Positions 9,233-64,000 of a DNA stretch of 64,000 bases are shown one piece after another; position 1 is the first letter of the stretch; each line of letters begins with the position of its first letter. The stretch covers positions 32,001-96,000 of IMG/VR virus record IMGVR_UViG_3300020192_000008; one strand, given 5' to 3'. Under the pieces are notes generated by a model. The model did not search any database, was not told where the DNA came from, and saw only the letters and a program-made list of their open reading frames with translations. This DNA comes from a virus. A program made the translations under genes and the position numbers.

Positions 9233-9604
9233 TAAGCCGATGGTTCCGTGAAGGAACCGAATGAAGTCGGACGCCCCTTCGGGCGCCTGCGTGTCGTTGT
9301 TACCGCCGACCAGATGGCCGATCTTCTCGCCCATGTTCGGGCCCACGAGATCAACCGCCGCAGCGATCTTCTCGAGCTTGCCCTCCTCGGCCGCCTTCTC
9401 CATCTGGGCGACTAGGCTCTCGTAGGGGACATCCGACTGGATGCCCTTCTCGTGCATCGCCGAAGCGACCTTCTCGGCCTCTTCGTGACGCATGCGGGCC
9501 TGGGCTTCCTTCTTCCAGAAGTCCCTTTCCCCGGCGAGTTGGGTGATCGCGGAAGCGCTCTTGGTGAGGAGGTCCTGGACCTGCGCGCTGCTCAGCTTGT
9601 TCAT
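9233..9604 (-). CDS. Small helical scaffold-like protein; ends at TTA (9233-9235)
   Basis: ATG 9604 with GGGGAG RBS; EKVAS, EKAAE and EKIAA motifs. In-frame TTA follows ...FLHGTIG. Reading it as Leu runs through the next gene's RBS and start. Confidence 0.65.
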
Positions 9605-9606
9605 GT

Positions 9607-11064
9607 TCAGCACTCCCCGCCGTCGAAGGCGTTCTTCTCGCGCCTGGGCGAATCTTTGCGCGTCTCTTTGTCCGCCTCGGAGGCGATCTTCTGGAGAAGC
9701 ATCTGGGCTGCCGCTTGCGCCGTCTGGTCAGAGGCGAGCTTGTGGCCAGCCTCTCCCGAGTGGGCGAACGCCTGCTGCAGCGTGGTGTCGGTGGCCTGCG
9801 TGAGAGCAGGCTCGTTGAAGTACTTGCCCAGCTCCGCTTTGCGGAGGCTGTAAGCCGAGTTGCGCTTGAGGTTGATGGCCGCCTCGTTCGAGGAGATCAT
9901 CGAGGTCTGGCTGCCGTAGCCGCCGGCGACAGGCTGACCGCCAGGCTCACCCGAGGCAGACGACTGGGGAGGCGTTGCCGCACCGCCGCCAGAGATCTGA
10001 GCCGGGTTGATGGCGTCTTCTGCCTGCTTGCGGAGACCGATGAGAGCATTGGCGAGAGACGCGCTCGCTGCCTTCTCCTCGGGCATCTCTTCATGGCGAG
10101 CGTTGAACGCCGTGTGGCCACCGAGAGCGCCAAGTGCGGTGTTGAGACCAACGCCGCCCTTGAGTGCGCCCATCGCAGCTTCACGAAGGTTGCCAGCACC
10201 CTGCATGCCCCGAAGAGCACCGATTGCCGAACCACCGAGAGCACCACGAGCAGCTGCGCCATCAGCCGAGTCAGCTCCGTAGCCGGCAAGAGCACCAGCC
10301 CCGCCGTATGCGAGACCCTTGCCGAGACCAGCAGCGGCACCACCGAGACCACCGAGTGCAGCTCCACCAGCTCCGCCCATGGCACCACGGCCAAGCATCG
10401 AAGCCTCGCTGCCCATCAGTCTCTCACCAAGAGCGCTGCCTGCTCCGCCCATGGCACCGAGGGCGCCACCTGCGAGAGCTCCACCACCAGCCCCGAGAGC
10501 GGCAGTCGTACCAGCTGAACGCATCACCGCGTTACGGAGACGCTCCGAGTCTTCCATCGCCTCTGGGTCTTCTTCCGCAACCTTCGACAGGGCGCGAGCA
10601 ACCTTCAGCTTCGCCGATGCGGTCTTGCCGCCACCGGAGAGAGCTGTCTGCTGCTGACCAGAACCGCCGGGGGGCGAGTCCATGGTGTTCTGCATCTGGT
10701 TGGCAGGGCCCGTGTTGGACGCCTGCATCCCCGGGTTCATCGGGGGCTGAGCGTGACCCTTGCCCTGGCCACCGGGGCCGGGGGGAGACTCACCACTCGT
10801 CGACTGGGAGACAGCGAGCGCGTTCGGGCCGGTACCAGGACCGATGTCCGAAGCCTGCTTGATCTGACCAGCCGCCCAGGCACATGCCTCCGCCAGCTTC
10901 TCAGCGTAGTCGGTGGGGATGCTCTGGTTGTCCTGCGTGTTGATGGGGGCAGCGGAAGCAGTCTTCTCGTGCCGAGCTGCCTCTGAGCGAACCATCCGCT
11001 CAGTAGCCCCTGCCATCGCTTCCTTGACGAGGTCTTGGAGCAGACCGCGATTGTGGGTTGGCAT
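9607..11064 (-). CDS. Putative scaffold/internal head protein with glycine-zipper insert
   Basis: 485 aa with at least 9 KxA motifs (EKTAS, EKLAE, IKQAS, GKTAS, SKVAE, EKAAS, RKQAE, HKLAS, QKIAS). Confidence 0.65.
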   Translation of the reverse strand: MPTHNRGLLQDLVKEAMAGATERMVRSEAARHEKTASAAPINTQDNQSIPTDYAEKLAEACAWAAGQIKQASDIGPGTGPNALAVSQSTSGESPPGPGGQGKGHAQPPMNPGMQASNTGPANQMQNTMDSPPGGSGQQQTALSGGGKTASAKLKVARALSKVAEEDPEAMEDSERLRNAVMRSAGTTAALGAGGGALAGGALGAMGGAGSALGERLMGSEASMLGRGAMGGAGGAALGGLGGAAAGLGKGLAYGGAGALAGYGADSADGAAARGALGGSAIGALRGMQGAGNLREAAMGALKGGVGLNTALGALGGHTAFNARHEEMPEEKAASASLANALIGLRKQAEDAINPAQISGGGAATPPQSSASGEPGGQPVAGGYGSQTSMISSNEAAINLKRNSAYSLRKAELGKYFNEPALTQATDTTLQQAFAHSGEAGHKLASDQTAQAAAQMLLQKIASEADKETRKDSPRREKNAFDGGEC

Positions 11065-11110
11065 TATTGATTCCTCTGAAGAAGTAGAGCGACGGTGGGG
11101 GGAGGTGGAG

Positions 11111-11140
11111 GAAGGGGCCGGGCTTTCACCCGGCCCCCTC
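11111..11140 (-). terminator. GC-rich hairpin with GAAA loop, weak terminator or processing site
   Basis: GGGGCCGGG (11114-11122)/CCCGGCCCC (11129-11137). The tail is C/U-rich rather than poly-U. Confidence 0.45.
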
Positions 11141-11148
11141 CTGGTCGA

Positions 11149-12003: not shown

Positions 12004-12093
12004 GGTGGTGTCCCTTGGTTCTTGATCAGTTGAGGATTACGCGCTGCGTGTTCCTCGAGGGGGAACCCCTCTCCACGCCGGCTTTCGCCCGAG

Positions 12094-13743
12094 TTACAGA
12101 AGGCCCCCGTAGATGTCAGCGCCCAACTCGTCCCAGAAAGCGTCCCGCAGATAGTGGACCGTGAGGGGAGTGAAGAGCTGATCAACTGGTGCCGACGCCA
12201 GCTTACTGAACTCACTACCCCTTGGGGCAGATGCGTTCAGAAGTCCTTGTGCGCCGCTCACCAGATCCATGAGAGTTGTTCGGTACCCGTTGTAGGCAGC
12301 TCCTATCTTACGCAGCACTTCTGAGGGATGGGAAGAAGAGGCCCTCTTCTCACCCCCGTCGCTCTTCTTCATCACAAGTACACGATGCTCAATCGCAGGC
12401 GCGAGAGCAGAGCGTGATTCCATGAGAGGGAGAAGAAGTCTTGCAAGTGAAGGAAGGAAGGAAGCGTGGCCGAGAGACATACTCTCAGTATCTTTCGATC
12501 TGGGGAAGACGATGTTCCGACGATCAAAGTCGTCAGCCATGTCTCTCCGTCCGATCTGAATCAAGACGATACGCTGAAACTCCCTGGGACGAAGAACGAT
12601 GCCCAAACCACCAGAAGTAGACAGGGAGCTGGGCAGGTCATGTTTCCCGAGTGCATCAAGCACATCATCAGGCAAATCTTCTTCTTCTCTCGACAGAGTG
12701 GCCACCGCCTTGCCAGCGAACTGGCTCGGCACAATGTCCTTGATGATCTCACTCTTCTTGAGCTTCGCGTCCTTGTATTGGAACGCTTCCTTGAAGATTG
12801 ACTCGTTGAGAGAAGCCGTCTTTTCCCCAACGGTCATCTCGTCGTAGCCGAGCTTCTCCGCCTCATAGGCAGAAGAGCCGAACGAATAGACGCGCCCCTC
12901 AGACGCGATCTTCATCATCGTCTTGGCTGTCTTGTCAGCCCCGATGAAGACGAAAGAGATGTCGAAGAACTTCGGGAAGTCGTTGTAGACGTACACCTTC
13001 CGGCCATCGGCCAGAATCTTGTTCATCTGATTGCGAGCGTGCTCGCAATAGTCCTTCCGAGTGATCGACACGCCCCGGATAGGGGTCTTCTTATGGATGG
13101 CGAGGATGGCCTGGCCCGGAGACGCGTGCTTCTTCGGGTCGAAGGTGGCAGCCGCCTCGTGGTACCGCTTCCAATCGAGGCAGATGGAGCACGTATCGAA
13201 GGGCACCTTGCAGCCCATCGAGACATCCGGAAACATGCCCTGGCTGAGCTTGTCCCAGACCTGCGTGCCCCCGTACTCCTGGCACTTGAGCTTATCGACC
13301 CGAGTAACGAGCTCGACGCGCTTGAGCCTCGGGTGCCAGACAGCCAGCTCCACCTCACCGAAGGCGCGGCCTGCGTCCTTGTTGCGATGGTGGGCGTAGG
13401 GGTGGGCTGAATAGAAGGTCGGGTAGCCGTACGCCCAATCCTTCGCCTTGATCTTGTCGAGCAAAGGGTTGCCCGTCCAATCATCAGGGCGATGGATCAG
13501 GGCAGCTTCTGGGAAGTGATCGCCGTTGACATTGGAGCCGAAGAACTCTCCGGCCCCCATGGCATTGACGAGGTTGTACGCTGCATCATTCCGGGGCCTG
13601 AGCGACTCGATATACTTGACGACGTCAGGAAGAAGTGTGGCTGATGCGGTCTTCTCGAAGTACGCATCAGACGCTTTGTTGAAGAGCGGGATGACCGTTG
13701 GGCCAGTCTCGCTCTCACCCCAGTATGTGCAGAGCTTGTACAT
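12094..13743 (-). CDS. Prohead maturation protease
   Basis: 549 aa with NGDHF, HH.NKD..RAFG, DVSMGC.V...CSIC and FFDISFVFIGAD motifs, matching the His/Ser HK97-type prohead protease layout. KxA sites flank the domain. Ends at TAA. Confidence 0.75.
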   Translation of the reverse strand: MYKLCTYWGESETGPTVIPLFNKASDAYFEKTASATLLPDVVKYIESLRPRNDAAYNLVNAMGAGEFFGSNVNGDHFPEAALIHRPDDWTGNPLLDKIKAKDWAYGYPTFYSAHPYAHHRNKDAGRAFGEVELAVWHPRLKRVELVTRVDKLKCQEYGGTQVWDKLSQGMFPDVSMGCKVPFDTCSICLDWKRYHEAAATFDPKKHASPGQAILAIHKKTPIRGVSITRKDYCEHARNQMNKILADGRKVYVYNDFPKFFDISFVFIGADKTAKTMMKIASEGRVYSFGSSAYEAEKLGYDEMTVGEKTASLNESIFKEAFQYKDAKLKKSEIIKDIVPSQFAGKAVATLSREEEDLPDDVLDALGKHDLPSSLSTSGGLGIVLRPREFQRIVLIQIGRRDMADDFDRRNIVFPRSKDTESMSLGHASFLPSLARLLLPLMESRSALAPAIEHRVLVMKKSDGGEKRASSSHPSEVLRKIGAAYNGYRTTLMDLVSGAQGLLNASAPRGSEFSKLASAPVDQLFTPLTVHYLRDAFWDELGADIYGGLL

Positions 13744-14282
13744 AAGGGGCCCTGACCGCCCTTGTTGTTGCGGCGCTGGTAGGGCTTGGCGACGACCTTG
13801 GGCTTGAGCGACTCGGCGAACGAGTTACCTGCGTGCTCACCACCCCTACGCCACGAATCAGCCATGGGGGACTTGAACTTGTCGGAGGCCGACAGGCTCT
13901 CGGTGAGGATGCCACCGGCTGACATGGGGTTGTCGGCCATGCGGCGCAGATAGGTCCCGGCGACGATCGGGTCCTTGGCGAAGTTCGGATTCATGTTCCG
14001 AAGCGACGAGTACATCTGGTTGAACATCTTCGGGTCGCGCTCGTGATGCTCATGCAGGTCCGGGTTCAGTTCCAAGATCTGCTTGAAGTCGTGCGACTTG
14101 GTGGCCGCATCGTAGATCTTGCCAGCGGCCATGCCGGCGCCGGCGAAGGCAACTCCGGCAGCAGCCATCCCAAGACCCTGCGTCATCGCATGGCCGAAGC
14201 CCTTGGCAGCTTCACCACCGAAGGCGACCTTCTCCTGGGGCTCGCCGTACTGGGCGTAGAAGTCATCGAGGGGGTTAGACAT
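13743..14282 (-). CDS. Virion protein (179 aa); ends at TTA overlapping the protease ATG
   Basis: EKVAF plus a hydrophobic segment. In-frame TTA at 13743-13745 forms TTATG with the next start. Confidence 0.65.
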
Positions 14283-15514: not shown

Positions 15515-16210
15515 ATGGATAAAAAACTCATGGGAAGCTGGCCCCGGCTGGTCTCCGTGCTGGAAGCAGCCGAGATGCTTTCGGTTTCTGTCGATCAAGT
15601 CCATCGCTGGAACCGGGATGGTCTACTAGAGGCTGAGTACCCAGAGGGAAGAAGAGGGGGGAAGTACTTCCAGACGGAAGACATCCAGACCCTCATAGAA
15701 GCTCGGGCCAGCAAGACGCTCTCTGACCATGATGTGAAGATTCTAGCCCTTCAGTCTCTGGTCTCCTCCAAGAGGGCAGAACGAAAACTCGATGAGCTGC
15801 TTGGGATGCTCGGTGTTTCGGACGTGAAGCTCGGTACCTCGAGGGAGGAGGTCTTGGCTTTCTTCGTCGAGGTAGAGGACGAGATCAAGGAGGGTGAGCC
15901 GCTCCTACCCGAGGAGGCGATCGGCTGGGCCAAGCGGATGCTGGGCATCACCGAGGAGTACCTGGAGCTAGTGAAGGAGCACACGTTCATGCTCGAGCCC
16001 TGGGTCCCGTACATGCAGCTCTCCAAGAAGCTGCACGACAAGTTCCCAGCAGGGCAGGCAGGGGCCTACCTCTCTCACGCCATCCGTAATCTTCGGCACA
16101 CGGCGTACTTCTACGTGCGTCGGGCGGATGGGGTGAGAGAGGCGACGAAGCGCTTTCCCGAGGGTGGCGTGACGAGCCAGCTCCTCGGGATCATGTTTCC
16201 GAAGAGCTAA
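15515..16210 (+). CDS. MerR/excisionase-type HTH DNA-binding protein
   Basis: LVSVLEAAEMLSVSVDQVHRWNRDGLL...F..EDI is a typical MerR/HTH_17 signature. Lone plus-strand gene in the virion module; the start may be ATG 15530. Confidence 0.7.
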   Translation: MDKKLMGSWPRLVSVLEAAEMLSVSVDQVHRWNRDGLLEAEYPEGRRGGKYFQTEDIQTLIEARASKTLSDHDVKILALQSLVSSKRAERKLDELLGMLGVSDVKLGTSREEVLAFFVEVEDEIKEGEPLLPEEAIGWAKRMLGITEEYLELVKEHTFMLEPWVPYMQLSKKLHDKFPAGQAGAYLSHAIRNLRHTAYFYVRRADGVREATKRFPEGGVTSQLLGIMFPKS

Positions 16211-19108
16211 CCCTTGGTTCGTTGGCCCCGAGTAACCGCCGAGGTTGGGGCCACCGCTCCGAGCGTTCTCTTTCTTCGGGGTGATGATGTCCGGCCTGGG
16301 GTGGATGATCATCGAGCCAACGAAGCAGTAGATGATAGAGTGCAACGCATCATCAGGCCGATCGGGCCTGTGCTGGTACTGGATCATGTGAAGAGACTGG
16401 TTGTACTCTGTGAAGATGTTCAGGATGTCTTGCCCGAACGGCTCACGGAACTCTTCCCACCTGGGGAACATGATCTGCTTGCGCTTGATGGCCGTGAAGA
16501 CATCGCTCACGACTTCCGTCTTGTGCACCTTCCAACGCTGCAGCTTACCGTCCCACTCGACCTTCTTCTTGTTACGGGCCATGTACTGGAAGCGGTGCAC
16601 GCGCTGGGTGCCGAAGCGACGGATCAAGTAGGCGTTGTTGTTGAAGCCACCGCCGTAGTCGCACCCGATGATGCGGACGTTGTACGCATGCAGGATGCGC
16701 TTGATCTTCTCGAGCTGGATCTCAGGGTCCGTGTCTTCACCCGTGAAGCGGTGGATGAAGAAGATCTTGAACTTCATCCCGTCGTAGTAGCCGAGACTCA
16801 TGACCGTGTAGCTGTTCTCGCCCGTGTTACCTTGGTACGCGATGCTTCCGTTACGCTCTGTGACGATGTACCCCGAAGGCACGGCGCAGCAGTACACCTT
16901 GCCCGCATAGGGGACGTGCTTCACCGCCGTGGAGGGGGTGTTGAACTGGTAGTCTCGGCCCTCCGACCACAAGGCTCTCCAGCGCGTCTTCCGGTTCCCC
17001 TCCGCAGGCTTGTGCAGCTTCACGGAGCACCGAAGACCGAGCTTTATGCAGATCTCCTGGAAGTCCTCGCACAGCCCTTTTGACGTCGAATAGAAGGCCC
17101 CTCCTGTGCAGCCCTCCCGAGGGTCCGTGTAACCGTCTCCGTCTACCAGGGCCTGAAACAAGATCCGAAGCTGCCTTTGGCCGAGGCCGAGGAACTCCCG
17201 TGGGATACGCTTCTCGTCCCCTTCGACCCCTACGTTCTGGGCGTACCACGCCCAGTACTGCTTGCCGTAAATGGTCCAGTTGACGTCCCCAGTCTTTGGG
17301 TTCGGGAACGCCTTGAACGAGACCCCCACCCGGTCGAGAGACGCCTGCATCTTGAGGTAGGTCTCGTGGTTGACCGTCTCCCTCTGCGACATCTTGAGGC
17401 AGGACGGGCGGCCCCCATCAAAGCAGACCCCGCCCTCTGTCACGAGATAGCCGAGTAGCTCCAACCAGTCGTCCATGGGGACGGTCTTGTCCTCAGAGCC
17501 CTTGTACCCAGGGCTCGTCGGCAGCCCCGGCAGCGTGAAGGCCTGCTTCTCCTCTCCTTGCCAGTCGACGTAGCCCACGAACTTGACGTTGCCGCCCCGT
17601 TCTACGAGTTCGCCCGCCGACTCGGTGAGCCACCGCTCTCCCTGGGAAGTCCCGACACGCATGCGGTGCGTATGGGTGATCATCAGATCGAGCCCCCCCT
17701 TGGTCTCGAAGTGTAGAAGTGGCTGGTCCCAGTCGCGTACCGTACGAACCTTCGGAGCCACGAAGGTCATCGCACGCGTTTCTGGATCCCACTGGGCTAC
17801 CTTGTCTTCGTCGGTGAGATCACAGAAGTACTTGAAGCCAGACTGCGTAAGAATGCGTGTCTTGTCATCGTGACAGCCCCAGTCGATGCCAGCGAAGATG
17901 TTGCCGGCGGTAGCCGTCTTGCGGATCTTCTCGAGGGCCGTGGGGTGCATCGTCAGCTTGGGGTCGCATGACTCCTTCAGCTGGCCCATGGTGATGGGCC
18001 GGAGGCCTGAGTCGTAAGACATCCCCAAGACTTCGTTGTAGAACTTGTCGCGGGGGTACCGCTCGTAGTCGAGCAGGATTTCCTCCCACGACCGCCAAGG
18101 CACCATCAGCTGGGGGATGCGGTAGCTCTCGAAGACCCCGTCACGGACCTGGTTGATCCACTTCGAGTCCTTGTGCATGGGGTCGATCTTCCCCCCGCAC
18201 TTCTCGCAGATGAGGCTCTTCTTACCGATGTTCTTCTCGCAGAGGATGTTCCAGTGCCGGCCAGCACCGCCACCAACGGAGGACCCGCAGTGGTCGCACG
18301 GCACCATCCACTCACCCTGCGTCGACATCGGGCGGCCCTTGGCCACGCCTGACCGGTAGAACTCGATGGGGTTGTCGAGCCCTTTGGGTGTGCCGGCGTA
18401 GATGAAGCGCTTGAACTTCTCCGGAGCGTGGCTTGTGCACTGCTCGATGACGGGGATGTTGTCGGCGAGAATGTCTTGGAGCTCGTCGAGGGTGAGCAGC
18501 CAGGCTGGGATGCCTCGGGTACGGTCGGCGTTGAGGAACGCATACCTCAAGGTGATCTTCGCCCGGTTGACGAACTGCTTCTCGAAGATGTTCTGCGACA
18601 GCATGGTCGTCGTGAACGTCTTCAAGACCTGGCTCGTCTCGATGGGCTCCTTGATACGGTCGACCGAGAAGACCTTCGTCTGCGTGGCTGACGGGCTCAC
18701 GTACAGCGTCTTGTACGCCGGCACGACGCACGAGTACGAGAGCATGATGTTGCCGATCATGGTCGACTTCTCGACCTGCCGGCCACAGAACAGGAGCACG
18801 CGCCTGGCTGGGGTGTTGTAGGGGCGGCGCATGTGCCGACGCCCCTCAAACGTGAAGTTCTCGTACCCCATACCGTCCTGCCGAGGCATCCGGAAGGCGA
18901 ACTCGGTGAACTGGCTGGGCAGGACAGCGGGGATCTTGACCGCTGCCCTGCGCTTCTCCTCTATCTCCCAGAAGTCCTCGAAGGGCTCTGGCTCAGGGAG
19001 CCAGGGCTTGCCGTTGTGCATCCTTCGGAGTTCTTCGTCTGTGAACTCTTCAGGCTCGAGGTCCTCTTCAGAAGGGACCGTGACGGGGTCAGGCTGGAAG
19101 CTGCTCAC
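16208..19108 (-). CDS. terL: Terminase large subunit (lambda GpA-like) with intein; ends at TTA
   Basis: GRQVEKST (Walker A variant), LTLDELQD (Walker B), GTP motif, CxxC...CxxC, GIDWG nuclease motif and C-terminal PDDALH. In-frame TTA at 16208-16210. Confidence 0.85.
16826..17875 (-). mobile_element. Intein with LAGLIDADG homing endonuclease in TerL (350 aa)
   Basis: Junctions GIDWG|CHDDKTRILT ... NGSIAYQGN|TGEN. Block B THTHRM; LAGLIDADG motifs LLGYLVTEGG and FQALVDGDG. Confidence 0.88.
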
Positions 19109-20443: not shown

Positions 20444-20450
20444 CTAAGGC

Positions 20451-22628
20451 TAACGCCTGCTGGAACGCCAGCGTCTTGAGACCCTCGATGACATCCTCGA
20501 GGTACTTCACGCACTTCTCGAGAGGGCCCTGGGGGATTTTCGAGAGCCCGAGCCTCGACGACATCAGCAGCTCACAGAGCTTCGCCTGCGTGCTGTTGAT
20601 CTCCGGCAGGTAGGAGACGAACGTGTGGATGTTCTCGGGGTTCACGAAGCCGATGGAGAGGATCGTGTCGACCGAGGTGGGGTCGGGGATGAAGGCCGCC
20701 TCCTTGAAGAGGTTGCGCTTGAGGTCGAAGGCGGGGCTCGAAGCGAGCTTCTCCTGGGACTTCCTGCGCGAGGCCATCTTCACCGACTCGGCAGGCTGGA
20801 TGTGCCGGCCCACCCGGACGTCGACCGGCATGCCATGGGCAATCGCCTGGGCAAGCTTCGTCTGGGCGTAGCCGAGGTCTGTACCCAGGCCACCCAACAG
20901 GAAGAGCGAGTCGTCGAACGACAGGAAGTGCTTCTCGTCAGACGCCAGCTTGTCGATGGGGAAGCCCTCGAACGAGAAGCTGTTGACGCCCCCCGCCCTC
21001 ACGGTCACCGAAGCAAGCTTCCGCTGGGCGTGCGCCACCTTGTTCCCGCCCTCAGGGGCGCTCACCAGGACAACGCTTTCGGCCTTGCCCATGCCCATCC
21101 ACTTGTAGTCCTTGGGCAGGAGGAACGTACCCTCATCAGCCTGGGTGGGCTTCTGGATGTTGGGCTGCAGAGAGACTGTGCACTCGCGACCATCGTAGGT
21201 CTCGACGTGCAGCTTCTGCTCCCCGTCCGTGACCTTCCCCTTGATGGTCATGGGGATGGTCGCCTCTGTCTCGTCACCACTCTGACGAACGAACACGCCG
21301 GTGCCCGTGGGGGAACCGAACATGAGCTCGCCGTTGGTGCTCTGCAGGCTACCGGCGATCTCCGGCTGCACAGCCGCCGCCGACCCGTTCGTGAACAGGG
21401 CGATGGGCAGAACTGTGCCGTCGAGGTCAGTCAGGTTGGGGAATACGAGCCCCATCATCTCGGTGCCCTCCTCGTTCTGCACCTTGTACGTGCCGAACTC
21501 GGTGATGGGCTTGAGGTCTGCCAGCGGGGCGCCTTCACCCACGGCATCGTCAGTGACGGTGACCGAGCCATGCTCATCGGCATCCTGGGCGAGCTTCACC
21601 CCGAAGTGCTTGATGATGTCGCCTCGGCTGACGGAGTGAGCCTCCTTGACCTGCCAGTACTTGTGGTTCGCCTCCTTGACCCGGTAGCCCACGTTCTCCT
21701 TCGAGACCTGGATGACCGAGGGGCGGATGGCGCTCTCCATCGAGGAAGCCACCTTCTCGCTGGTCACCTGGTTGGTGTTCCAGATCTTGTTGATGGAGGG
21801 GAGGGTGGCGTGGGCGTTCTTCACGTACGCCTGTTGAACCCCAACGTCCTTCATCTCGTGGGCGAAGGAAGTAAGGTCGGAGCTCAGTGCTGTCGGAAGG
21901 ATGGCCTCGAGCAGAGAGGCTGACTTCTCCACACCAGTCAGGTCATGACCCGAGGTCTTGAGGTCAGACTCGTTCGGGTCCTTCTTGAAGCCCTTGAGCT
22001 TCTTGGCATCGACACCAAGCACCTTCGACAGGCGCTCTGCGAACTGCGCCTTGTTCTTGTCTTCGGCCGTCTTGGTCTCAACGTGCAGCTGCTCACGCAG
22101 GTAGTACTCGAGATCTGAGCTGGTCTTGCCCATCATCCCGCCGGCGCCACCCATGCCGCTGCCATCCCGGTGGGGCGGGTAGATCTGACTGGCCATCGAC
22201 GTGTCACCTGGCGTCTTGCTGGTGACATCGAAGGTCTGTGGGCGGAAGAGGGCTTCCTTCAGACGCCGCTCGGTGAGGGGAAGAACCTTCGAGTCACCAG
22301 TAACGATGAGGTCGAGGGGCTGAAGCTTCTTGTCCTTGACCACCACCGGGATGCGAACCGACTTCACGCCCACGGCGTCCTTGGCCTGGTCGCTTGCGCC
22401 TTGCTGCAGCTCGGTCTTGTTGGAGATCTCAATGTGGCCGAATGCAAAGCCACGCTCACCATCGATTCGATCCATCACCGTGTGAGGCTCGAAGTCCGAG
22501 ATGAAGGGGATCTGCTTGTACGCTTCCTGCAAGATCTCCTGCGACCACTGGTTCGGGTCTTCAGGAAGAACAGTCTCAGCGGCCGTCTTCTGGATCGGCA
22601 GGATGGAGTCGAGGTAGAGGTTCGTCAT
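20451..22628 (-). CDS. Large virion protein with many KxA motifs (725 aa); ends at TTA
   Basis: Two in-frame TTA codons (20451-20453, 20445-20447) lie just before the next GTG start at 20443. The standard code gives a ~500-nt overlap. Confidence 0.7.
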
Positions 22629-23295: not shown

Positions 23296-24492
23296 TCAAA
23301 CGAGGCACGATGCTTCGCCCGTGAGGATCATCCCGAAGAGAACAAGGGGAGGACTTCCAGGAACGGGTACTGGCGTAAAGGGGAAAGTGAGTTGCACCAA
23401 TGCCCCCTGAGCAGCCACGGGCTTGGAGCCCTTGCCCAGGCGAACAATGCTTCCCTTGACGTGGGCCAGAGCTCCGCCATCGAGAACCATACCGTTCTTG
23501 GCCTTCATCAAGATCTGATTCTCGCTCTCGAGAGTCAGGTCTTCTTTGCTCTTGATGTAGATCTTCTTCTTCGAGGTGAGAGCCACGTTGCCCTGCGCCC
23601 TGAGGAAGACGCCACCAGCCTTGTCGAAGAAGAACCTCATGACAACCTTGTCACGGGTCTTGTTGTCGATGGGGTCCCCTGTGTCTGCGTTGAATCCCTT
23701 GGGGGCTATCACGCACTCAACCACGATCTGCTCCTTACCGATGCTGAGCAAGTCGAGCAGGCCCTGCTCACCACCATCACCCGATGGCTCGATGATGGGG
23801 TCATGAATCTTGCCCACCTTCACCCGAACATCTGCCTCTTCATCATTGGCCAGGATGCGAAAGGTGTGGGTGTACTCGCTGGGTAGGTCCTGGTAAGCCG
23901 GGCCTTCTTGGATGCCCCAAAGAACAGACCCACCGTGGTTGTGGTGGGCATAGTTCTTCGTCATCTGCATCAACGTATCGGTGAGCGGGATGTAGATGCT
24001 CTGGCAGATCTCCGAGCAGCCGATCTGCAATACACCGCCCCGATGAAGGATAACGAAGTTGCCATCCCTCGTACGGAACCAGATGTCACCCGGCTTGGCC
24101 TTGGGCCTACCCCCTGAGAAAGTCGCGCTAGTCGAGCTCTTGTTCGGCTGGTTGTTCGACTGCGTTCCCTTGGGCGCGTCCGGAGCTGCCTGGTCGTTGT
24201 ACTCAACCGGCATGATGAACGAGCTCACGTAAGGGGGTGAGCTGTCGGAGGGGACGGTGACCATGCACTTGGCACCAACCTCGGGGAAGACGTAAGCGCC
24301 CTCCCCGTTGTTGTAGTGCAAGTACATGCTGCCTACTTGGATGCCAGCAAACCTATGCCGGTCGAACTGGCTGATGACATCCACCGTCCAGTTCGCCAGG
24401 TTGACGCCGACGATCTTCCCTTGAAGAACGTACGACTCAACGTTCCCCTCCATGAAGGTGAACGAGGTGCGGAAGCGTTGGATGCCTTGCAT
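23296..24492 (-). CDS. Baseplate central spike (gp5/gpV-like)
   Basis: N-terminal OB-fold-like pattern (PEVGAKCMV), beta-repeat C-terminal half and a tip-like end (RLG..SKPVA..G...G.I.TG). Confidence 0.55.
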   Translation of the reverse strand: MQGIQRFRTSFTFMEGNVESYVLQGKIVGVNLANWTVDVISQFDRHRFAGIQVGSMYLHYNNGEGAYVFPEVGAKCMVTVPSDSSPPYVSSFIMPVEYNDQAAPDAPKGTQSNNQPNKSSTSATFSGGRPKAKPGDIWFRTRDGNFVILHRGGVLQIGCSEICQSIYIPLTDTLMQMTKNYAHHNHGGSVLWGIQEGPAYQDLPSEYTHTFRILANDEEADVRVKVGKIHDPIIEPSGDGGEQGLLDLLSIGKEQIVVECVIAPKGFNADTGDPIDNKTRDKVVMRFFFDKAGGVFLRAQGNVALTSKKKIYIKSKEDLTLESENQILMKAKNGMVLDGGALAHVKGSIVRLGKGSKPVAAQGALVQLTFPFTPVPVPGSPPLVLFGMILTGEASCLV

Positions 24493-44216: not shown

Positions 44217-44622
44217 AGAAGTCCCGCACGAAGTGAAAGAGTTCCTTGAGGCTCAGGACCGCATCATCCGCTACCGGGAGGCTCACCCCGATGTCTTCGA
44301 GACGTACGAGGAGCTTGCCTCCACGTACAACGACAAGCTCGAGGCAGCTGACAAGGTCGTCCGGGGCGGGGCGCTGAGCGTGGGGCCCTTCGAGAAGTAC
44401 CAGGTCCAGAACAGCTACGACGCCGACAAGCTGTTCGAGGAAGTGGGTATGGAGAAGTTCCTGGCCATGGGTGGCACCATCAAGACGAAGGCTGTCTACG
44501 AGGTGGACCCCAACCGCCTCAAGGCCGCCATTGCTCAGGGCACTGTGCCAGCTGACGTGGTGAAGAAGGTGCACAAGGAGACACCGAAGTACCACAAGCC
44601 ACAGAAGCTGGTGGTCAGGTGA
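44200..44622 (+). CDS. Hypothetical protein
   Basis: ATG 44200 (MKTKTEEV), strongly biased codons. Confidence 0.65.
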   Translation: MKTKTEEVPHEVKEFLEAQDRIIRYREAHPDVFETYEELASTYNDKLEAADKVVRGGALSVGPFEKYQVQNSYDADKLFEEVGMEKFLAMGGTIKTKAVYEVDPNRLKAAIAQGTVPADVVKKVHKETPKYHKPQKLVVR

Positions 44623-44942
44623 GGACGGCGAAGTTCAACGCGCTCTCCGTCAAGGAGCTTTCTGCCAACTTCATCAGCTCTGACCCAGCGCTTGAGGGCA
44701 AAGCAGCCTTCGTCAGCACGCTGACGCAGAAGACGCATGGTCAGACCATTGGCAAGGTCTGGAGCAAGGACACCCTCGACTTGCTCACCCAGCTCAAGGC
44801 CTCGATGGAAGCAGACCTCGAGACGGTTCACTTCGCTGACGGGCCGACCAGTTCTTCCATCAACCAGCAACCTCGTCAGATCGACGAGGCTTTTGAGGGT
44901 GGGGGCATAGGCGAACACATCGGTGGTGAACGTCAAGTGTTA
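44619..44942 (+). CDS. Hypothetical protein; in-frame TTA at 44940-44942 (TGA four codons later)
   Basis: GTGA-coupled start; 107 aa up to TTA. Confidence 0.6.
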
Positions 44943-45047: not shown

Positions 45048-46430
45048 ATGGCTAGCAGCGAGCACCAGCTCATTTCCCTGATCATGAAGACAGGGGATTT
45101 GAAGACAGTACTCGAGTGGGGGATCACCGAAGACGATCTCCTGATGAACGACACGAACTCGGCGTTCAAGATCTTGATGTCGGTGTACACGAGCCCCGAT
45201 TCAAGGGGCGCTGTACTTGGGCCGTCATCAGCACTTGAGAGGTACCTGCCCGCGTGGCAGTTCGAGGTTGATGCGGGCATGACGCTCAACTTCCTTTGCA
45301 GCGAGGTGCGCAAGCGCAGGCTGTCGAAGGAGCTGAAACTCAAGGCACAGGCCTGCATCGAGTACGCAGACCTCAACCCTGAGGAGGCATTCAACCAGTT
45401 GAACGAGGCAGTGACCCTCTACCGCAACATCGATGCCGGCAAGTCAACAGACGTTGACCTGGCAACGGGCATGAAGAAGGTCATCGCGAAGTACAACAAG
45501 GCCAAGAACGGGCAGAGCATCGGCCGGTTCATGTGGCCTTGGAAGCCTCTGCAAGAGGCTACTGGTGGTGTGGCTGACGATGAGTTCGCCGTCTTCTACG
45601 GCAGGCCCAAGAGCATGAAGTCTTGGATCTTGATGTACCTCATCACCTTCGCCTTCGAGATGAACCAGAAGGTTCTCTTCTACACCAAGGAGATGACCGA
45701 CGAGCAGTGCTACCAGCGGATGGCCGCCATCATGGTCGGCGCTCTCTACCAGGACCTGCGCCTGGGCAAGCTGCCTGCCTTCCAGGAAGAGCAGCTGCAC
45801 GTCATCCAGCAGGTGGCCGAGGAGATGGCCTCGAAGAACAGGATGATCTGCCTCACGGCCAAGGACGTCGCTGGCAGGGACACCCCCAGCTGGCTGCGAG
45901 GCAAGATCGAGAAGTACCACCCCGACGTTGTCTTCGTCGACGGTCTGTACCTGATGAGCCCCGAGGCTCGCCGTAAGACGATGCAAGACCACGAGCGTGT
46001 TCGGGAGATCTCCCGTGACGTTCGACGCATCGTTCTCGAAGAGAAGGTCCCGCTGATGGCCACCATGCAGGCCAACCGGCAGGCAGCGAAGCACTCTGAA
46101 GGCAACCTTGATGAGATCGCCTTCTCTGACTCGCTCTCGCAAGACTGCACCATGGCTTGCCGGGTGATGTCCGACAAGCACCAGCCCACCATCAGCCTCG
46201 TGATGGCCGGCTCTCGTGAGTGGACGCTCGACGGGTTCCGGGTGCACGGCATCCCAGCGAGCAACTTCAGCTTCCACTCGGTTCTGACCAGCAAGGAGAT
46301 CGAACAGGTCAGGAAGAACGACGAAGAGGAGGACGAGCCGAAGGACAAGAAGCCCGTACGTCAGCCCCGCACGTTGGGGGCAGAGAAGCCTGCTCCCAAC
46401 TACAAGAAGACGCTCGAGAACATGCCGTTA
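45048..46430 (+). CDS. dnaB: DnaB-like replicative helicase; ends at TTA overlapping the primase ATG
   Basis: GGAGG RBS; GRPKSMKS Walker A, FVDGLYLM Walker B, MQANR and SDSLSQD. In-frame TTA at 46428-46430. Confidence 0.82.
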
Positions 46431-47398
46431 TGGACAGGCACTCGGAGGTACTTGCTATCGCACAGAAGTACCTTCACAAGGTCAAGAAGAGCGGGCCAGA
46501 CAACGTCATGGCGTTCTGCCCCTTCCACGACAACGTGAACACCCCGGCGTTCACGATGTCGTTGACCAAGGGCATCTGGTTCTGTTTCTCATGCCACGCC
46601 AAGGGAACACTCAAGATGTTCCTCAAGGCGATGGGCATAGGCGAGGGTCTTGTTCAGACGCACTACGGCTCGCTCATCGACGCCCTACGCAAGAACGTAG
46701 ACCCGGCCTTTGATCCCAACAAGCCTGGGGTCATCTGCCAAGAGCCTCTCGACGAAGCCATCCTCGGGTTCTTTCACGAGTGCCCGATGGATCTAATCAA
46801 CGAGGGCTTCACCGAGGAAACCCTGCTCCACTTTGGGGTGGGGTTCGACAAGAAGCACAACCGCATCACGTACCCCATCCGAGACTTCACGGGGAACCTG
46901 GTCGGCATCAGCGGGCGCACTGTTACAGGTGCCTACCCGAAGTACAAGGTCTACGACCTGGAGTACAAGGACTTCGGTCTGGGCGTCTACCACACCGACA
47001 AGTCTCGGTACCTCTGGAACTCGAGCGAGGTCTACCCTCAAGTCTACTTCTCAAGGGGCGAGAAGGTCGTGCTCGTTGAGGGCTTCAAGGCCTGCATGTG
47101 GGCCTGGCAAGCGGGTATAAAGAATGTGCTAGCCCTTCTAGGCTCATCAATGTCAGCCCAACAGAAGTGGGTGCTTGAGCGTCTAGGCGCACCGGTGTAC
47201 CTCTGGCTAGACAACGACGACGCCGGCCGTAATGGCACGAAGAAGATTGGCGATGATCTGTCCAAGTCCTTGGACGTGTTTGTCATCGGCTACGAAGAAG
47301 CGCAACCGAGTGATCTCGCCCTTGAAGATGTCCAGAGTAAAGTCGCCTCCGCGACGGACTATCACCTGTGGGCAGTAAGAAAGTACCTGAAAGGTTTA
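46430..47398 (+). CDS. dnaG: DnaG-like primase
   Basis: CPFH...CFSC zinc finger, GR...KY, and TOPRIM motifs VEGF and DNDDAG. Starts at a TTATG and ends TTA TGA. Confidence 0.88.
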
Positions 47399-48555
47399 TG
47401 AACATGGGCTCCTACGGCAAGACTGATATGAAGAACGCCCCGACCACCTTCCGCCAGTCGGTGGCCAGCCAGCAGAAACAGAAGCCCGAGAAGACTGGTG
47501 CTGGCGGGGGGAACGTCCCCTACTTCGTCAACCAGTTCAAACCCTCGACGGAAGAGCCAGACGTGGTGCGCCTCCTCAAGGGGGAGTACCCGGTCCAGCT
47601 GGCTGGGCAGAACGGTGAGCTGGTCGAGCAGACGCTCGCCTACTACATCTACCGCGAGCACTTCGATGGCCGTACCAACAAGAGCGCCATCTGCTCAGCG
47701 GGACCGTTCGCGATGGACCGCAAGAAGCGCCAGCCCTGCGATGGCTGCGACATCTACTGGGAGGAGCGGTCTGCGGGCAAGAAGCAGAACAACCGCATGT
47801 CCAACCGGGAGATGTACGTCTTCTCGATGCTTCATCACGCCAACTACGTGAAGACCGAGCAGCTCGACCGCAACACCGGCGCCGTGAAGGTGAACGATGA
47901 CGGCCAGCCGTACATGAACTGGGTACGGATGATGGCCCACGAGCGTGGGAAGTTCGCTGGCAAGGAGATGAAGGACGCCAACGCCCTTCACTGGGCCATG
48001 GGCTTCAACCACTTCAACGTCATCCGCGAGTACGACAAGCAGATCGGCAAGTCGTGCAGGGCGTGTGGTGTGAAGGCTGGGCGCAAGGGCGCTCACGAGG
48101 TCGGGGTCAAGAGCGAGGCGTGGTGTTGCCAGGGCTGCGGGGAGGCGCTCATCGAGGTCGACTCAACGGAGCTGGCGCCCAAGCAGATCGACGAGATCAC
48201 GTCTGACGTGGTCGAGTGCGCTGTGTGCAAGCGTGTCGGCTACCTGCAGGAGATGGTGTCCTGCACCGAGTGCTCGGATGGAACGCGCTCGGAGATCTTC
48301 GACGTGGACCTGGAGGTTCAGCGGGTGAAGCCTGCTGATGGTGGCAACCAGACGGTGCTGGCCATTGTGGGCTGGGCGAACCCGCACCCCATCGACCCTC
48401 GGCATGTGGAGATTGCCAGGCCGCTGGAGCTGCCGAAGATCTACGCGCCTACCCCGCTCGAGCGTCAGCACGAGCTCTTCGGTAGCTCGGGGAGGCAGCC
48501 GGTCACCGCTGGCAGCAAGCCCTACGGCGGGCCTCCGACTCTCGGCGGCAAGTTA
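47398..48555 (+). CDS. Probable ssDNA-binding protein with Cys clusters; ends at TTA
   Basis: Lies between primase and polymerase, with a gp32-like H..C..C..C pattern. TTA 48553-48555 immediately precedes a terminator. Confidence 0.5.
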
Positions 48556-55280: not shown

Positions 55281-55620
55281 GGAACTGCTCGGGGCCTGCA
55301 ACCACACCGAGCTGCACCAGATCTGCAGGCGTATGGACATCCATGTCAGACCGACCGCAAGCCGGGAAGACATGATCGACTACATCTGCGGGAATGATGA
55401 ACCCCCTCCGCCATGGCACGGCATCAATGCCTGGCGACATGCCCTCATGGGCTTCGTTCTCGACAACTGGGAACTCATACGTTCTCAGATCTCCTGCCCG
55501 GCTAAGTCTGGTGACCCGCGTGCCTGCTTCGGTTGTACCGATACGCAGGTGATGTTCTGTGTTGTCGACAATCACGACAACGAGTCTCTCATCCAGCTGC
55601 ACAAGAAGGATCAACCATGA
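55255..55620 (+). CDS. Cys-rich hypothetical protein
   Basis: 121 aa with an N-terminal Rho-N/HeH-like helix pair and CP.....C..C......C. Confidence 0.55.
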   Translation: MSSSIRSFEELLGACNHTELHQICRRMDIHVRPTASREDMIDYICGNDEPPPPWHGINAWRHALMGFVLDNWELIRSQISCPAKSGDPRACFGCTDTQVMFCVVDNHDNESLIQLHKKDQP

Positions 55621-56324
55621 ACGCTCCCGCAACCACGATGCCCAGCCCCGAGACCGCTCCCCGCACGCCCGAGGAGCTGACGAAGATGACCGTCTTCCTC
55701 CAGCGCAGGCTGGCCGAGCAGCTCAACTCGTCGGGCTTCCCGGTCTGGACGAGCGAGCCGGAGAAGACGGCCTTCATCACCGAGACCAGCGAGAAGCGCG
55801 GGATGATCTTGGCCGAGAAGCTGGCCGCCTTCGACAAGGCCCGTGGCGGTGCTCCCGCCGCTGCAGCTCCGGTGGCTACGGTGACCCCCATCACCCCGCC
55901 GACGGAGGCAACGCCGGCGCCCGCCACGGCCAGCAAGCGTCAGCCCAAGACGCAGGCGGCTGCACCTCCTCCGGCAGCTGCCCCCGCTGTCAGCGGTGAG
56001 CAGGGGGTGCTCTCGTCCGAGGTCGTCAACCTGCTCAAGACGGTCTCGACCGACCTGAAGAACCTGCACGGGATGACCGATGCGAGGATCGAAGGGGTGG
56101 AGAACCGTCTCGATGGCGGCAAACTCGTCACCAAGGGCGACCTCGTGGAGCTCAAGGACATGCTCACGGCGTCGATGCGCGTGCAGCAGGCCACGCTCGG
56201 GGTGCTCTGCCTGTTCGGGCAGGAGGTGCTCAAGGCCTCCACCCGTGACGTGATGGGTCCGGCGATCGAGGAGGCGAACAACGCCCTCGACGCTCTGGAG
56301 GAACTGGGCAAGGGAAAAGCATTA
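55617..56324 (+). CDS. Hypothetical protein (235 aa) ending at TTA; -1 frameshift product extends to TAA 56509
   Basis: AAGGA RBS and ATGA coupling. G_GGA_AAA at 56312-56318, TTA at 56322-56324 and hairpin at 56329-56353. Confidence 0.7.
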
Positions 56325-58087: not shown

Positions 58088-58092
58088 ACTGA

Positions 58093-58150: not shown

Positions 58151-58156
58151 TGCTTA

Positions 58157-58459: not shown

Positions 58460-58466
58460 TGTACTT

Positions 58467-61183: not shown

Positions 61184-61193
61184 GGCGTGTTCT

Positions 61194-61547
61194 TCACGGT
61201 GGGAGGAAATATCTGACGCATGAAACCCGGCGTATTGAGGCGTTACACCTTCTGATGAGGTCAGCAGAGGCTGTAGCAAGAGCATCTCTTTCTAGTCGAG
61301 ACTCCTCTTTCAAACGAGGGATCTCGTACTCGATGTACATGCTCCAAGCGTAGGCCAGTCGCTCTTGGAACTTGTCGATCGTCTTCTGGGGGACGCCGTA
61401 GCCACCGTTGAGGATGGCGGTGATCGTACTCCAGTTCAGGCGCAGGATTCGGTTGAGGCGATAGTCGCCGGCGACACCGTGGACGAACGTGAGCGTTCTG
61501 TACGTCTTGAACAGGTTCTTACAGGTGACCTTGTCGAGCTTTCTCAA
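61194..61547 (-). CDS. Hypothetical protein, possible HTH
   Basis: 117-aa ORF in the operon; TTG start uncertain. Confidence 0.4.
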   Translation of the reverse strand: MRKLDKVTCKNLFKTYRTLTFVHGVAGDYRLNRILRLNWSTITAILNGGYGVPQKTIDKFQERLAYAWSMYIEYEIPRLKEESRLERDALATASADLIRRCNASIRRVSCVRYFLPP

Positions 61548-61759
61548 TCGAGCACCAGGGGAATGTGAGATGGCTTGGGGAAGTGGGAGATCCCCTTCAC
61601 AATCTCTTCAACGTATTGAAGAGACATCTTGGACATGCGCTTGCGGATGCGCTCTGCCGTTCTTGAGCTGATACCACCAAGTGGTCTCTCATCCTCTTGA
61701 GGAGAGCCTGCTCATAGTCGTAGAGCCGTCCTTGCCAGGGCTTGAGCTTCTTGGTCATG

Positions 61760-62113
61760 TAAGAAGGAGTTCACATCAGGGAAGCTGGGGTTGATCTTCG
61801 TGCCCGCGAATGAGTACTTCAAACCTTCTTCGATGACCCAGATGCTCAGGTCACCCAGCGCCTTGCGGATCTTGTAGAGACTCGACTTGCTCACCCCGTT
61901 GTTAGGTCCGTGATACCCCCGGGCCATCTCGAGGGTGATGGGCTGAATCTTGTACCGGTAGGTGAACTCGTAATAGGGACTGCCGCCAAGCTTCTTGATG
62001 GCCTCCCAGAGCTTCTCGTACGTCTCCTTGTCTTCGGCGCTGAGCCGGTACTTCTGCGAAGGCTTCACCTTCTTGGTGCCTTCGTAGAACCTGCGCAGTC
62101 TTCGGAGGCTCAT
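61760..62113 (-). CDS. Hypothetical basic protein; ends at TTA (61760-61762)
   Basis: ATGA-coupled start. The in-frame TTA is followed 1 nt later by ATG of a short ORF (MTKKLKPWQG...). Confidence 0.5.
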
Positions 62114-62319
62114 GGCATGGCTTTCCGAGCGTGAGGTTTGATGCGAGCTACTAGCTCAGCCCCCACTGTTGTACCGCTTTCTATCGAAGACCTGCGGGCC
62201 TCTGCAACGAGCTGTTCTACCTGCTGCAGACACCACTGGTAGGCGGGCTTTTCATACGCCCCGTCCTCGGCGATGGTCCGCTGTACGTGCCGTGCGTAAG
62301 CACGAAACTCGTGGGCCAT
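62110..62319 (-). CDS. Small hypothetical protein (MAHEFRAY...)
   Basis: 69 aa; C-terminal portion of the 243-aa track ORF. Confidence 0.5.
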   Translation of the reverse strand: MAHEFRAYARHVQRTIAEDGAYEKPAYQWCLQQVEQLVAEARRSSIESGTTVGAELVARIKPHARKAMP

Positions 62320-62866
62320 TGTGCTTCGCGTAGTAGATGACGTCCTTCCAGTCGCCGGTACGGAAGTAGTCCGTCTCGGCGTTGTACGGCTGCGCCCAGA
62401 CGATGCCGAGGCCATCAGGATGGTGGTCCATCCACTCGATGATGTGGCTCTCCTTGTCGTCAACGAGGATGTCCCCCTTGCAGACGTACTTGGCGTGGGT
62501 CTGGATGACCTTGTTCTGGCGGAAGCCGAAGTGCTTGTAGAGCCACTCGCCCCGCTCGTACGCCCAGTGCCGGCTGCTGTGAGGGGCCGTGACCACGTAG
62601 ACGTCAGCCACCTCAAGCAGCTTGGGGATGCCCTCGAGTGCGGCCTGGTAGGGCTCGATGCCAAGGACCACACCAGGCGTCTCGTGGATGTAGCCCCAGA
62701 AGTCCTTCTCGATGAGGTCCCCGTGCTTGCTGAACAGGTCCCACATGTCGAGCTCCTCTTCCTTGAGCTCCTTGCCCGTCTTCTCGGAGATCCATCCAAG
62801 GGCAAGCTTGACGAAGTTCGCCAGCACACCATCACAGTCAACCAGCACGCGCTTACGTGGTCCCAT
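62297..62866 (-). CDS. HAD-family 5'(3')-deoxyribonucleotidase; ends at TTA
   Basis: DCDGVL, VVTAP, W...HF, K....GDILVDD and PYN motifs; AAGGAG RBS. Confidence 0.85.
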
Positions 62867-62954
62867 CTTCAACTCCTTCTCCCAGCTTCTCTAGCTCGGC
62901 TTTCGCATCATCCATCTCTCGCTGAAACCACGGCTTGCTGTTTTCATCCGCCAT
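62853..62954 (-). CDS. Small acidic peptide (33 aa) starting in a TTATG overlap
   Basis: AAGGAG RBS 5 nt upstream; MADENSKPWFQREMDDAKAELEKLGEGVEDGTT; TAA stop. Confidence 0.55.
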   Translation of the reverse strand: MADENSKPWFQREMDDAKAELEKLGEGVEDGTT

Positions 62955-64000
62955 AACGACTCCTTGATGAGTGCGAAGTTGTGTTCACCGGGGATGGTCT
63001 TGCGATGCTGGACCCACCCCTGGACATTGCCCAGGAAGTGCGTGCAACGATCGACGTCTATCCACGCCTTGTTGAGCTCATCCCACTCGTAGACGGGCTG
63101 GTAGAACATCTCGAGCTCCTTCTCCGTCATGGGCCTGCACGGGTGCTCGAGGGGGCTCATGTGCCCAGGCTTCACGAGCCTGTCGTAGAGCTCGAGGTCC
63201 TTGGAGATGTCGCGCTTGCCATCGTGGGCGAGGGCAGAGACGCGGGCGCAGCGGGCTGCGGAGACCTTCACCAGCTCAAGCCGTACCTCAGTCGTCGTGT
63301 CGCTCCAGGAGTAGTAGCTTGCGTCGCCACCGTCGACGTACGGCAGGTGCCACTCACCGTGCTTGAGCTGCTTGGGCTCGCTCTTGTCGTAGACATCCTT
63401 CATCATCCCCGCGACCATCTGCATCTCGGGTTGAGCGTTGGGGTCGCAACGCAGGGCGAAGAAGTTGTCCCACTCGGTCGCGGTACAGATCACAGTCTGC
63501 CAGCCCCACGGCTCGAGCAGGCGGTTGGCATGCTGCTTGTGTACAGCGAGGTTGAACAGGCCCTGAGCTGCACGGACGCACGCATCAAGCGCATCCGTCC
63601 AGTGCTTGGACGCTTCGTGGTTGGAGAGCTCGCTCATGACCTCGGTTGCCTGCATCCCCTTCTGGTTCTTGGTGAAGGCGATGGGTACGAAGGGGTTGGC
63701 CTTGACGCGCTCGATGTTCTTCTCGACGGGGATGGCCCTCGAGGAAGCTGAGTTACGGCTGTTGTGCACGACGACCCCATTCGCGAGGAAGTTGGGGTAC
63801 TTCCCCACGATCTCGAGGTCGTAGGTTGGCTCTTGGCCCCGCGAGACGATCTCGTCGATCCGTGCGAGAGACCCGTACAGATACGTGCCGCCCTGCCAGC
63901 CCTGCTTCTCGTGCATCGCGCAGTGGCAGTCGTCGCACAAGAGCGTGACGTTAGTCTCTTCCAGAGCCAGAGAAGGATCCTGATGCACCGGAACGACGTG
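62954..64000 (-). CDS. thyX: Flavin-dependent thymidylate synthase, C-terminal part with intein; ends at TTA
   Basis: SRNSASSRAIP, HKQ.ANRLLEP, NFF.LR....AQPE, SAARCARVS and H.SPLEH motifs; 5' end lies beyond the window. Confidence 0.82.
63761..64000 (-). mobile_element. C-terminal part of an HNH-containing intein in ThyX
   Basis: H..PV...N..LLC..CH...H HNH motif, then TYDLEI...NFLANGVVVHN|S splice junction. Confidence 0.85.

Follow-up and report, generated by a model that had tools for sequence, protein, structure and literature searches.

Can a sense codon serve as an ordinary stop signal in a phage? The question is raised by a 64,000-nucleotide stretch of phage DNA, bases 32001-96000 of the IMG/VR virus record IMGVR_UViG_3300020192_000008 (here G000; the stretch is hereafter the window, and coordinates are those of the window unless marked genome), for which the initial annotation listed twelve genes carrying an in-frame TTA leucine codon where the protein should end, and proposed that TTA acts as a fourth stop codon. 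All 13 of the listed triplets are indeed in frame on the strand assigned to them, and UUA is most likely a translation-end signal beside UGA, UAA, and UAG, closing about 15% of the genes (18/118). Judged from codon usage and homology, UUA very probably ends these proteins in vivo. G000 is a single linear record of 107,272 bp with a GC content of 0.60 and a completeness of 58% (CheckV), and derives from an uncultured high-GC soil or sediment phage with a full genome of roughly 185-190 kb.

Gene calling on the whole 107-kb contig with TTA added as a fourth stop yields 118 genes covering 94% of the contig, which end in TGA (70 genes), TTA (18), TAA (16), and TAG (14). TTA is never in frame within these genes (0 of 33,557 codons) and occurs 127 times in the other two frames (60 and 67), so the claim that all other TTAs within genes are out of frame extends to the entire contig. 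About 5 internal in-frame TTAs would be expected from the usage of high-GC relatives, and about 93 from base composition. Only TTA is affected; TTG is used 193 times inside genes as a normal leucine codon.

In an open reading frame (ORF)-independent test, a codon model trained on long ORFs was used to score the three-frame coding signal 120 nt upstream and downstream of every TTA on both strands. Twenty-five TTAs are in frame with an upstream coding signal, which ends or shifts frame at 24 of them; the lone continuing TTA is a weak 29-codon antisense ORF. With all 64 codons scored, the share continuing in frame is 0.04 for TTA, 0.05 for TAA, 0.05 for TGA, and 0.08 for TAG, and lies between 0.34 and 0.76 for sense codons except AGA. 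AGA (0.13) was considered as a second odd codon and rejected, as it is present 67 times inside genes; its low score arises because Shine-Dalgarno-like words are found at gene ends. TAA, TAG, and TGA remain stops, as had been proposed, and no reading of any of them as an amino acid was seen in G000, where continuation is only 0.05 to 0.08 and ortholog ends match at genes with standard stops.

The junctions between genes follow the same pattern. One-base stop/start overlaps take the form TTATG five times, TGATG seven times, and TAATG not at all, and in each of three convergent gene pairs the two genes share their final triplet, read as TAA on one strand and as TTA on the other (genome 7990-7992, 21914-21916, and 48208). 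To selection, TTA counts as the end of an ORF: the former downstream stops have been lost, and the TTATG overlaps mirror TGATG coupling. A swap of meaning between TAA and TTA was rejected, since TAA still scores as a stop, as was frameshifting to a nearby stop; TTAG gives a +1-frame TAG at 7 of the 18 sites, and the TTATG and TTAC sites give none.

The TTA sites of the twelve genes in the window are as follows.

9233..9235, minus strand: TTA end of a 123-aa head-module gene (9233-9604); 48 of 63 orthologs stop at the same column.
13743..13745, minus strand: TTA end of a 179-aa gene (13743-14282), in a TTATG overlap with the prohead protease start.
16208..16210, minus strand: TTA end of the large terminase (TerL) gene (16208-19108, 966 aa, with a LAGLIDADG insert).
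20445..20453, minus strand: TTA GCC TTA end of a 725-aa portal-like gene (20451-22628); the next gene has a GTG start at 20443.
44940..44942, plus strand: TTA near the end of a 107-aa gene (44619-44942), with TGA three codons on; ambiguous.
46428..46430, plus strand: TTA end of a DnaB-like helicase gene (45048-46430, 460 aa), in a TTATG overlap with the primase start.
47396..47398, plus strand: TTA as the last codon of the primase gene (46430-47398), in the context GGT TTA TGA; uninformative.
48553..48555, plus strand: TTA near the end of a 385-aa zinc-finger gene (47398-48555), with TGA six codons on; ambiguous.
56322..56324, plus strand: TTA end of a 235-aa gene (55617-56324); the G009 ortholog stops two residues earlier.
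61760..61762, minus strand: TTA end of a 117-aa gene (61760-62113); the coding signal stops, and a 15-codon tail lies in the intergenic gap.
62297..62299, minus strand: TTA end of an NT5C-type 5'-nucleotidase gene (62297-62866, 189 aa), with a 14-codon tail.
62954..62956, minus strand: TTA end of a 637-aa gene (62954 to beyond 64000); the coding signal stops, with a 20-codon tail.

Orthologs were compared across 80 loci centered on the major capsid protein (MCP) gene and other loci in the comparison set, with the first comparison against G001 (IMGVR_UViG_3300045922_001133), whose TerL is 71-76% identical. Homology bears out that TTA ends genes, independently of the reasoning by which these sites were first proposed, and does so for TerL, the 123-aa gene, and the portal-like gene; genes with standard stops show the same kind of ortholog-end agreement. 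The TTA column of TerL is the stop column in 46 of 48 orthologs, and the proteins end ..GYTGPLYQG-TAG in G001 and ..GYSGPTNQG-TTA in the window. The same triplet is also the TAA stop of a convergent helix-turn-helix gene (15515-16210, plus strand), across which the TerL readthrough tail would run antisense for 79 codons. The portal-like proteins end on one column (..LKTLAFTRS-TGA in G001 and ..LKTLAFQQA-TTA in the window), and readthrough there gives a tail of 165-167 codons spanning the next gene. The tail of the 123-aa gene consists of 24 codons without coding signal; two relatives, L056 and L057, also have TTA at this end column, with the next standard stop 184 codons later. Readthrough of the 179-aa gene continues for 81 codons into the protease gene, and its G001 ortholog stops at a TAA just upstream of the protease gene.

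The helicase and the 235-aa protein are similarly informative. Almost all of 119 helicase homologs in a large protein collection are 450-481 aa long, and the longest has 498; the standard-code readthrough form would have 496 aa. The ends of the G001 (..EALANM-stop) and window (..TLENMP-TTA) helicases fall within 1-2 residues of each other, and the readthrough tail of 35 codons lies within the primase gene. The window's helicase is entered in a public protein collection as the 496-aa readthrough form, on two contigs, and TTA therefore stands in the public record. For the 235-aa gene, the ends are ..GAGKG-TAG in G009 and ..GKGKA-TTA in the window, and the tail is 51 codons without coding signal.

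The proposal that the readthrough tails are implausible at all twelve genes is thus sustained to differing degrees. Support from these alignments and tails is strong at 9233, 13743, 16208, 20451 (with 20445), 46428, and 56322, because of ortholog ends or long junk tails across neighboring genes. It is moderate at 61760, 62297, and 62954, where tails of 14-20 codons lie in intergenic gaps and ortholog support is weak or absent: no orthologs of the 117-aa or 637-aa genes were found among five complete relatives, and the two NT5C orthologs whose alignments reach this end terminate, respectively, a few residues short of the TTA column and about two residues past it (residues 7-176 of the 189-aa protein match Pfam NT5C). 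Sites 47396, 44940, and 48553 are uninformative and carry no weight for TTA as a stop. The first of these had been offered as evidence, but TTA is directly followed by TGA there, and the A of the TTA is that of the next gene's ATG; the G001 ortholog of the 107-aa gene is similar in length, and that of the zinc-finger gene ends a few residues off. The signs that would speak for readthrough were also sought in G000, where internal columns are free of in-frame TTA and the post-TTA tails are not part of any homolog.

A further site lies outside the window, at genome 26319, where two virion genes share one frame and are split only by TTA and 12 codons (genome 25573-27507, L012:5573-7507). Relatives have TAA or TAA-TGA between these genes at this junction, together with a common TPF tail that G000 has lost. 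The G000 stretch after TTA is largely composed of A/T-ending and mostly rare codons and includes a GAGGG ribosome-binding site. The TTA aligns with a CTC leucine codon of G002, and the TTA stop therefore need not derive from TAA.

The same TTA pattern is present in relatives from at least four other metagenome datasets, namely L052 (3300031772_000014), L056/L057 (3300010338_002052, 3300009711_000038), L060 (3300033075_001295), and G004 (IMGVR_UViG_3300033075_001674; L008/L009), none of which has TTA in the aligned gene parts. In L052, TTA occupies the TerL stop column and also closes the gene preceding MCP, and G004 has a TTATG junction at L008:8911. A gene ending at G010:16384 was considered as TerL and rejected; it is another TTA-ended gene, with no function assigned. 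We note that L056 and L060 (about 20 kb each) have zero TAA stops and 5-6 TTA ends, compared with 16 TAA and 18 TTA in G000.

In most relatives TTA is an ordinary rare leucine codon. Among these non-users, L024 has 29 internal TTAs in 4,487 aligned codons and L090 has 17, and an internal sense TTA of G001 (L001:4860) has homology clearly continuing beyond it; the change is therefore lineage specific. Non-users with a GC content of at least 0.60 have about 25 internal TTAs in about 157,000 aligned codons, and several high-GC non-users have none, including L020 and L018, which are closest to G000 in the trees. In the TerL tree, G000, L020, and L018 group together (98% support) within a clade of 26 rows (100%) that otherwise consists of non-users; the remaining users sit elsewhere, the strongly supported branches force at least two state changes, and the MCP tree agrees. 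These phylogenies require at least two origins of the TTA-stop trait within a single clade of environmental phages of ~185-195 kb, a pattern that speaks against an assembly error. The series seen across relatives, from leucine use through loss to stop use, is the one expected if a codon first disappears and is then captured as a stop.

The tRNA complement of these phages is also unusual in places. G004 encodes a 74-nt tRNA with anticodon CTA, of the amber-suppressor type (L009:7887-7960), and TAG is still stop-like in 39 kb of that record. The second clade of users carries a cluster of two or three tRNA-like genes with abnormal anticodon loops (L056:2280-2511, L060:1966-2165, and also L057 and the contig L098 from a metagenome-assembled genome [MAG]); in one of them a GAAA tetraloop replaces the 7-nt loop, and loop lengths are 9-17 nt in the rest. 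The non-user G002 has three tRNAs (L010:286-521): an Arg(TCT), a type-I tRNA with anticodon GTA, and one with a 16-nt insert in the anticodon loop. No tRNAs were found in the stretches examined of the other MCP-centered loci.

What, then, reads UUA as a stop? The best overall explanation, and in our judgment a fairly probable one, is that a host release factor of widened specificity does so. GC pressure would first drive TTA nearly to extinction, and TTA would then return as a stop in a cell without a competing tRNA-Leu(UAA). There, a bacterial-type class-I release factor of widened specificity would read UUA, perhaps one resembling the RF2 with a Ser204 substitution proposed for organelles, and the host would supply it. 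Reading by a release factor is favored because organelles in which UUA is a stop use bacterial-type release factors, and the host is its most likely source, given that the 107 kb yielded no release factor, rescue factor, or tRNA. Taken by itself, the identification of the UUA reader as a host release factor is tentative, falling a little short of an even chance. The absence of release factor and tRNA genes had been noted for the window and holds for the whole contig (RF-1, PCRF, and tRNA searches), which also has no tmRNA or other Rfam family. RF-1 and PCRF domains are likewise absent from G004, G010, G011, G012, and G013, all of which are fragments, as is G000, and a release factor domain search across nine related phage records was empty.

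As to the host, it is possible, although we would put it below an even chance and distinctly so, that a free-living soil or sediment bacterial lineage made UUA a stop (through an altered RF2 or RF1 and loss of tRNA-Leu(UAA)), that unrelated phages converged on the same usage, and that this phage clade entered the lineage at least twice. Clade contigs L097-L104 are found in MAG bins named Edaphobacter, Deltaproteobacteria, Anaerolineales, Methanoregulaceae, Desulfatibacillum, and Gemmatimonadota. The bin names were rejected as pointers to a host, as the eight relatives span six phyla and no host is given; wrong binning is therefore favored, and the presence of ~190-kb phage contigs in these bins looks like widespread mis-binning.

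We note, however, several points that weigh against a host-read UUA stop. MAG G014 holds a copy of the L056-type TTA-stop contig but reads TTA as sense, with one such codon inside a GGDEF domain and another between SLT and LysM domains; its release factors are canonical (RF2 with an SPF motif and RF1 with PVT). Either this bin is wrong, or a host with the standard code can carry a TTA-stop phage; G014 itself was rejected as the host on the grounds of its sense TTAs and canonical factors. (The coding-score metric was left unused on G014, where TAG seemed to continue even though its ORFs tile normally under the standard code.) In addition, a phage-borne factor could lie on the part of the genome that G000 lacks, six of the twelve listed genes have short tails that discriminate poorly on their own, and at genome 26319, where the next gene is in the same frame, there is a small chance that a fusion protein is made.

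An unlikely alternative is that UUA is simply unassigned, with no tRNA to read it because the host lacks one or the phage destroys it, such that ribosomes stall and are then rescued by ArfA/RF2, ArfB, or a tmRNA-like system. The complete absence of TTA inside genes is consistent with this, as are the many high-GC relatives without TTA, which represent the codon-disappearance stage, and the lack of a release factor on any searched phage record. Moreover, at about a quarter of the TTA ends, a standard stop or another TTA follows within three codons (e.g., 47396, 20445-20453, and 44940), and such nearby second stops could back up a slow signal. However, rescue systems need a truncated mRNA, and tmRNA tags its product for degradation, so that rescue would be ill suited to completing TerL, portal, helicase, and 15 other proteins, and the TTATG coupling suggests orderly termination and restart. 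In Micrococcus luteus extracts, unassigned codons reportedly caused stalling without release of the peptide, which also counts against this alternative.

A second possibility, which we regard as quite improbable, is that the UUA factor is phage borne and lies on the missing ~42% of the genome, perhaps as a divergent release factor, a tRNA-like molecule, or an anticodon nuclease directed against tRNA-Leu(UAA). It would account for at least two origins inside a clade that otherwise reads TTA as leucine, and for a MAG such as G014 with a user-type contig and the standard meaning of TTA; the odd tRNA-like genes of the second user clade and the G004 tRNA with anticodon CUA also favor it. Those tRNA-like genes have no counterpart on G000, however, on which no tRNA or Rfam family was found, and no release factor domain is present on G000, G004, or G010-G013, although all of the searched records are fragments and the absence weighs little. 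If true, such a factor would double as a host shut-off function, with UUA-containing host mRNAs stalling.

It is highly improbable that TTA is read as leucine, or that it triggers frameshifting or bypassing as at the UUA in the terminase gene of Streptomyces phage Hau3, so that the extended or fused products are real. UUA-linked bypassing has been proposed for actinophage terminase genes (PMC10732093), and the shared frame at genome 26319 is in keeping with a fused product. But the tails lack coding signal, are unconserved, and reach as far as about 500 nt into neighboring genes; the TTA column is simply where orthologs end, with no gene split; and the codons preceding TTA have no common slippery or take-off pattern. 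Homology resuming downstream of TTA across a Hau3-type gap was not encountered, the tails being unconserved or an alternate frame of the next gene.

Although TAA and TTA differ by one base and the record is a metagenome assembly, it is extremely improbable that true TAA codons were miscalled or misassembled as TTA, as the effect is frame specific and leaves 127 out-of-frame TTAs and 16 TAA stops untouched, changing TTA at the three shared triplets would destroy the partner's TAA stop, the column at genome 26319 is a sense codon in relatives and not TAA, the same pattern recurs in contigs from the other metagenome datasets, and the readthrough form of the helicase is found on two contigs in a public collection.

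The genes affected belong to a phage of otherwise recognizable content, with a large terminase, a DnaB-type helicase, a DnaG-type primase, and an NT5C nucleotidase. The LAGLIDADG insert in TerL is intein-like and occupies roughly residues 425-760 (window 16211-19108, minus strand); the G001 TerL has an insert at another place, in an open frame of 1395 aa. The G001 homolog of the prohead protease (L004:3-3659) aligns as three separated pieces, which suggests inserts or introns that are absent from G000. A 2126-aa protein (24492-30872, minus strand) is TGATG coupled into the virion operon, and its C-terminal 1002 residues match bacterial and phage rpoC at ~28% identity; these matches fit a predicted fused beta/beta'-type RNA polymerase. 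There are 292 MCP relatives of G000 in IMG/VR, of which the best 80 share 74-87% identity, and the complete relatives are 177-195 kb long; direct terminal repeats occur in some of them. Among cultured phages, a protein search gave only distant kin, the nearest being Salmonella phage Arash and Vibrio phages D69, D181, and D148 (MCP identity 26-29%); a DNA-level search of cultured phages with G000 gave no match.

The use of TTA as a stop has organellar precedents. NCBI table 23, the Thraustochytrium mitochondrial code, has TTA as a stop. The initial annotation knew of this case and of no sense-to-stop reassignment in phages or bacteria; the latter stands, but table 23 is no longer the only example, as UUA is a stop not only in labyrinthulean (Thraustochytrium) mitochondria but also in peDinoflagellate plastids, each with an RF2 Ser204 substitution, and both UUA and UUG are stops in the mitochondria of some green algae (Marsupiomonadales and Pseudoscourfieldia), with an altered mtRF1a (PMC12574857). 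The organelle UUA codes resemble that of G000 in the codon and the sense-to-stop direction, in the placement of UUA at homolog stop columns and its absence inside genes, in the retention of standard stops, in the lack of an encoded cognate tRNA (in G000, on the 107-kb contig), and probably in translation with bacterial-type RF1/RF2. They differ in that organelle genomes are small and AT rich, whereas G000 is from a virus of a prokaryote with a genome of ~190 kb and 60% GC, whose release factor is probably encoded outside the phage genome and in which close relatives differ in the trait, which arose at least twice in one clade. The Marsupiomonadales and Pseudoscourfieldia mitochondria share the change from leucine to stop, there through a modified class-I release factor, but in the phage TTG stays leucine.

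Known recodings in phages run the other way, with TAG reassigned to glutamine (code 15) or TGA to tryptophan (code 4) (bioRxiv 10.1101/2021.08.26.457843; PMC9523058). These phages also have a nonstandard code that is patchy within a clade, and a relative of G000, G004, has a tRNA with a CUA anticodon; here, however, sense becomes stop, TAG, TGA, and TAA are all stops, and there is no suppressor tRNA on the contig. The rare regulatory UUA codon of Streptomyces (bldA) and the Hau3 terminase (PMC10732093) are alike in having a rare UUA at high GC that is exploited by a phage, also in a terminase gene, but in Hau3 the UUA is inside a split gene and the ribosome passes a short gap, whereas in G000 nothing of the protein is missing at UUA, which is also where orthologs end. 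A search of the full-text literature found no published sense-to-stop reassignment in phages or bacteria, such changes being described only for organelles, and the natural bacterial and phage code changes that were found all turn a stop or sense codon into an amino acid. Codetta is stated to be unable to detect sense-to-stop changes of this kind (PMC9825746). The kind of change and the codon are thus both known from organelles; what is new to the searched literature is that the change occurs in a phage, where it probably reflects cytoplasmic translation of the prokaryote type.

A phage that closes one gene in seven with UUA would mean that prokaryote-type translation outside organelles has no fixed set of stop signals, and the codon-disappearance route can be traced stepwise in living relatives, in which TTA is leucine, is lost, or is a stop. 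Standard gene callers will fuse or overextend about 15% of the genes in such a phage, and the public helicase entry is 36 residues too long. The TTA stop may also restrict gene flow between phages and hosts. The finding points to a host factor, possibly an RF2 variant, and if a free-living bacterial lineage does read UUA as a stop, it would be the first sense-to-stop code change in cellular, nonorganellar translation.

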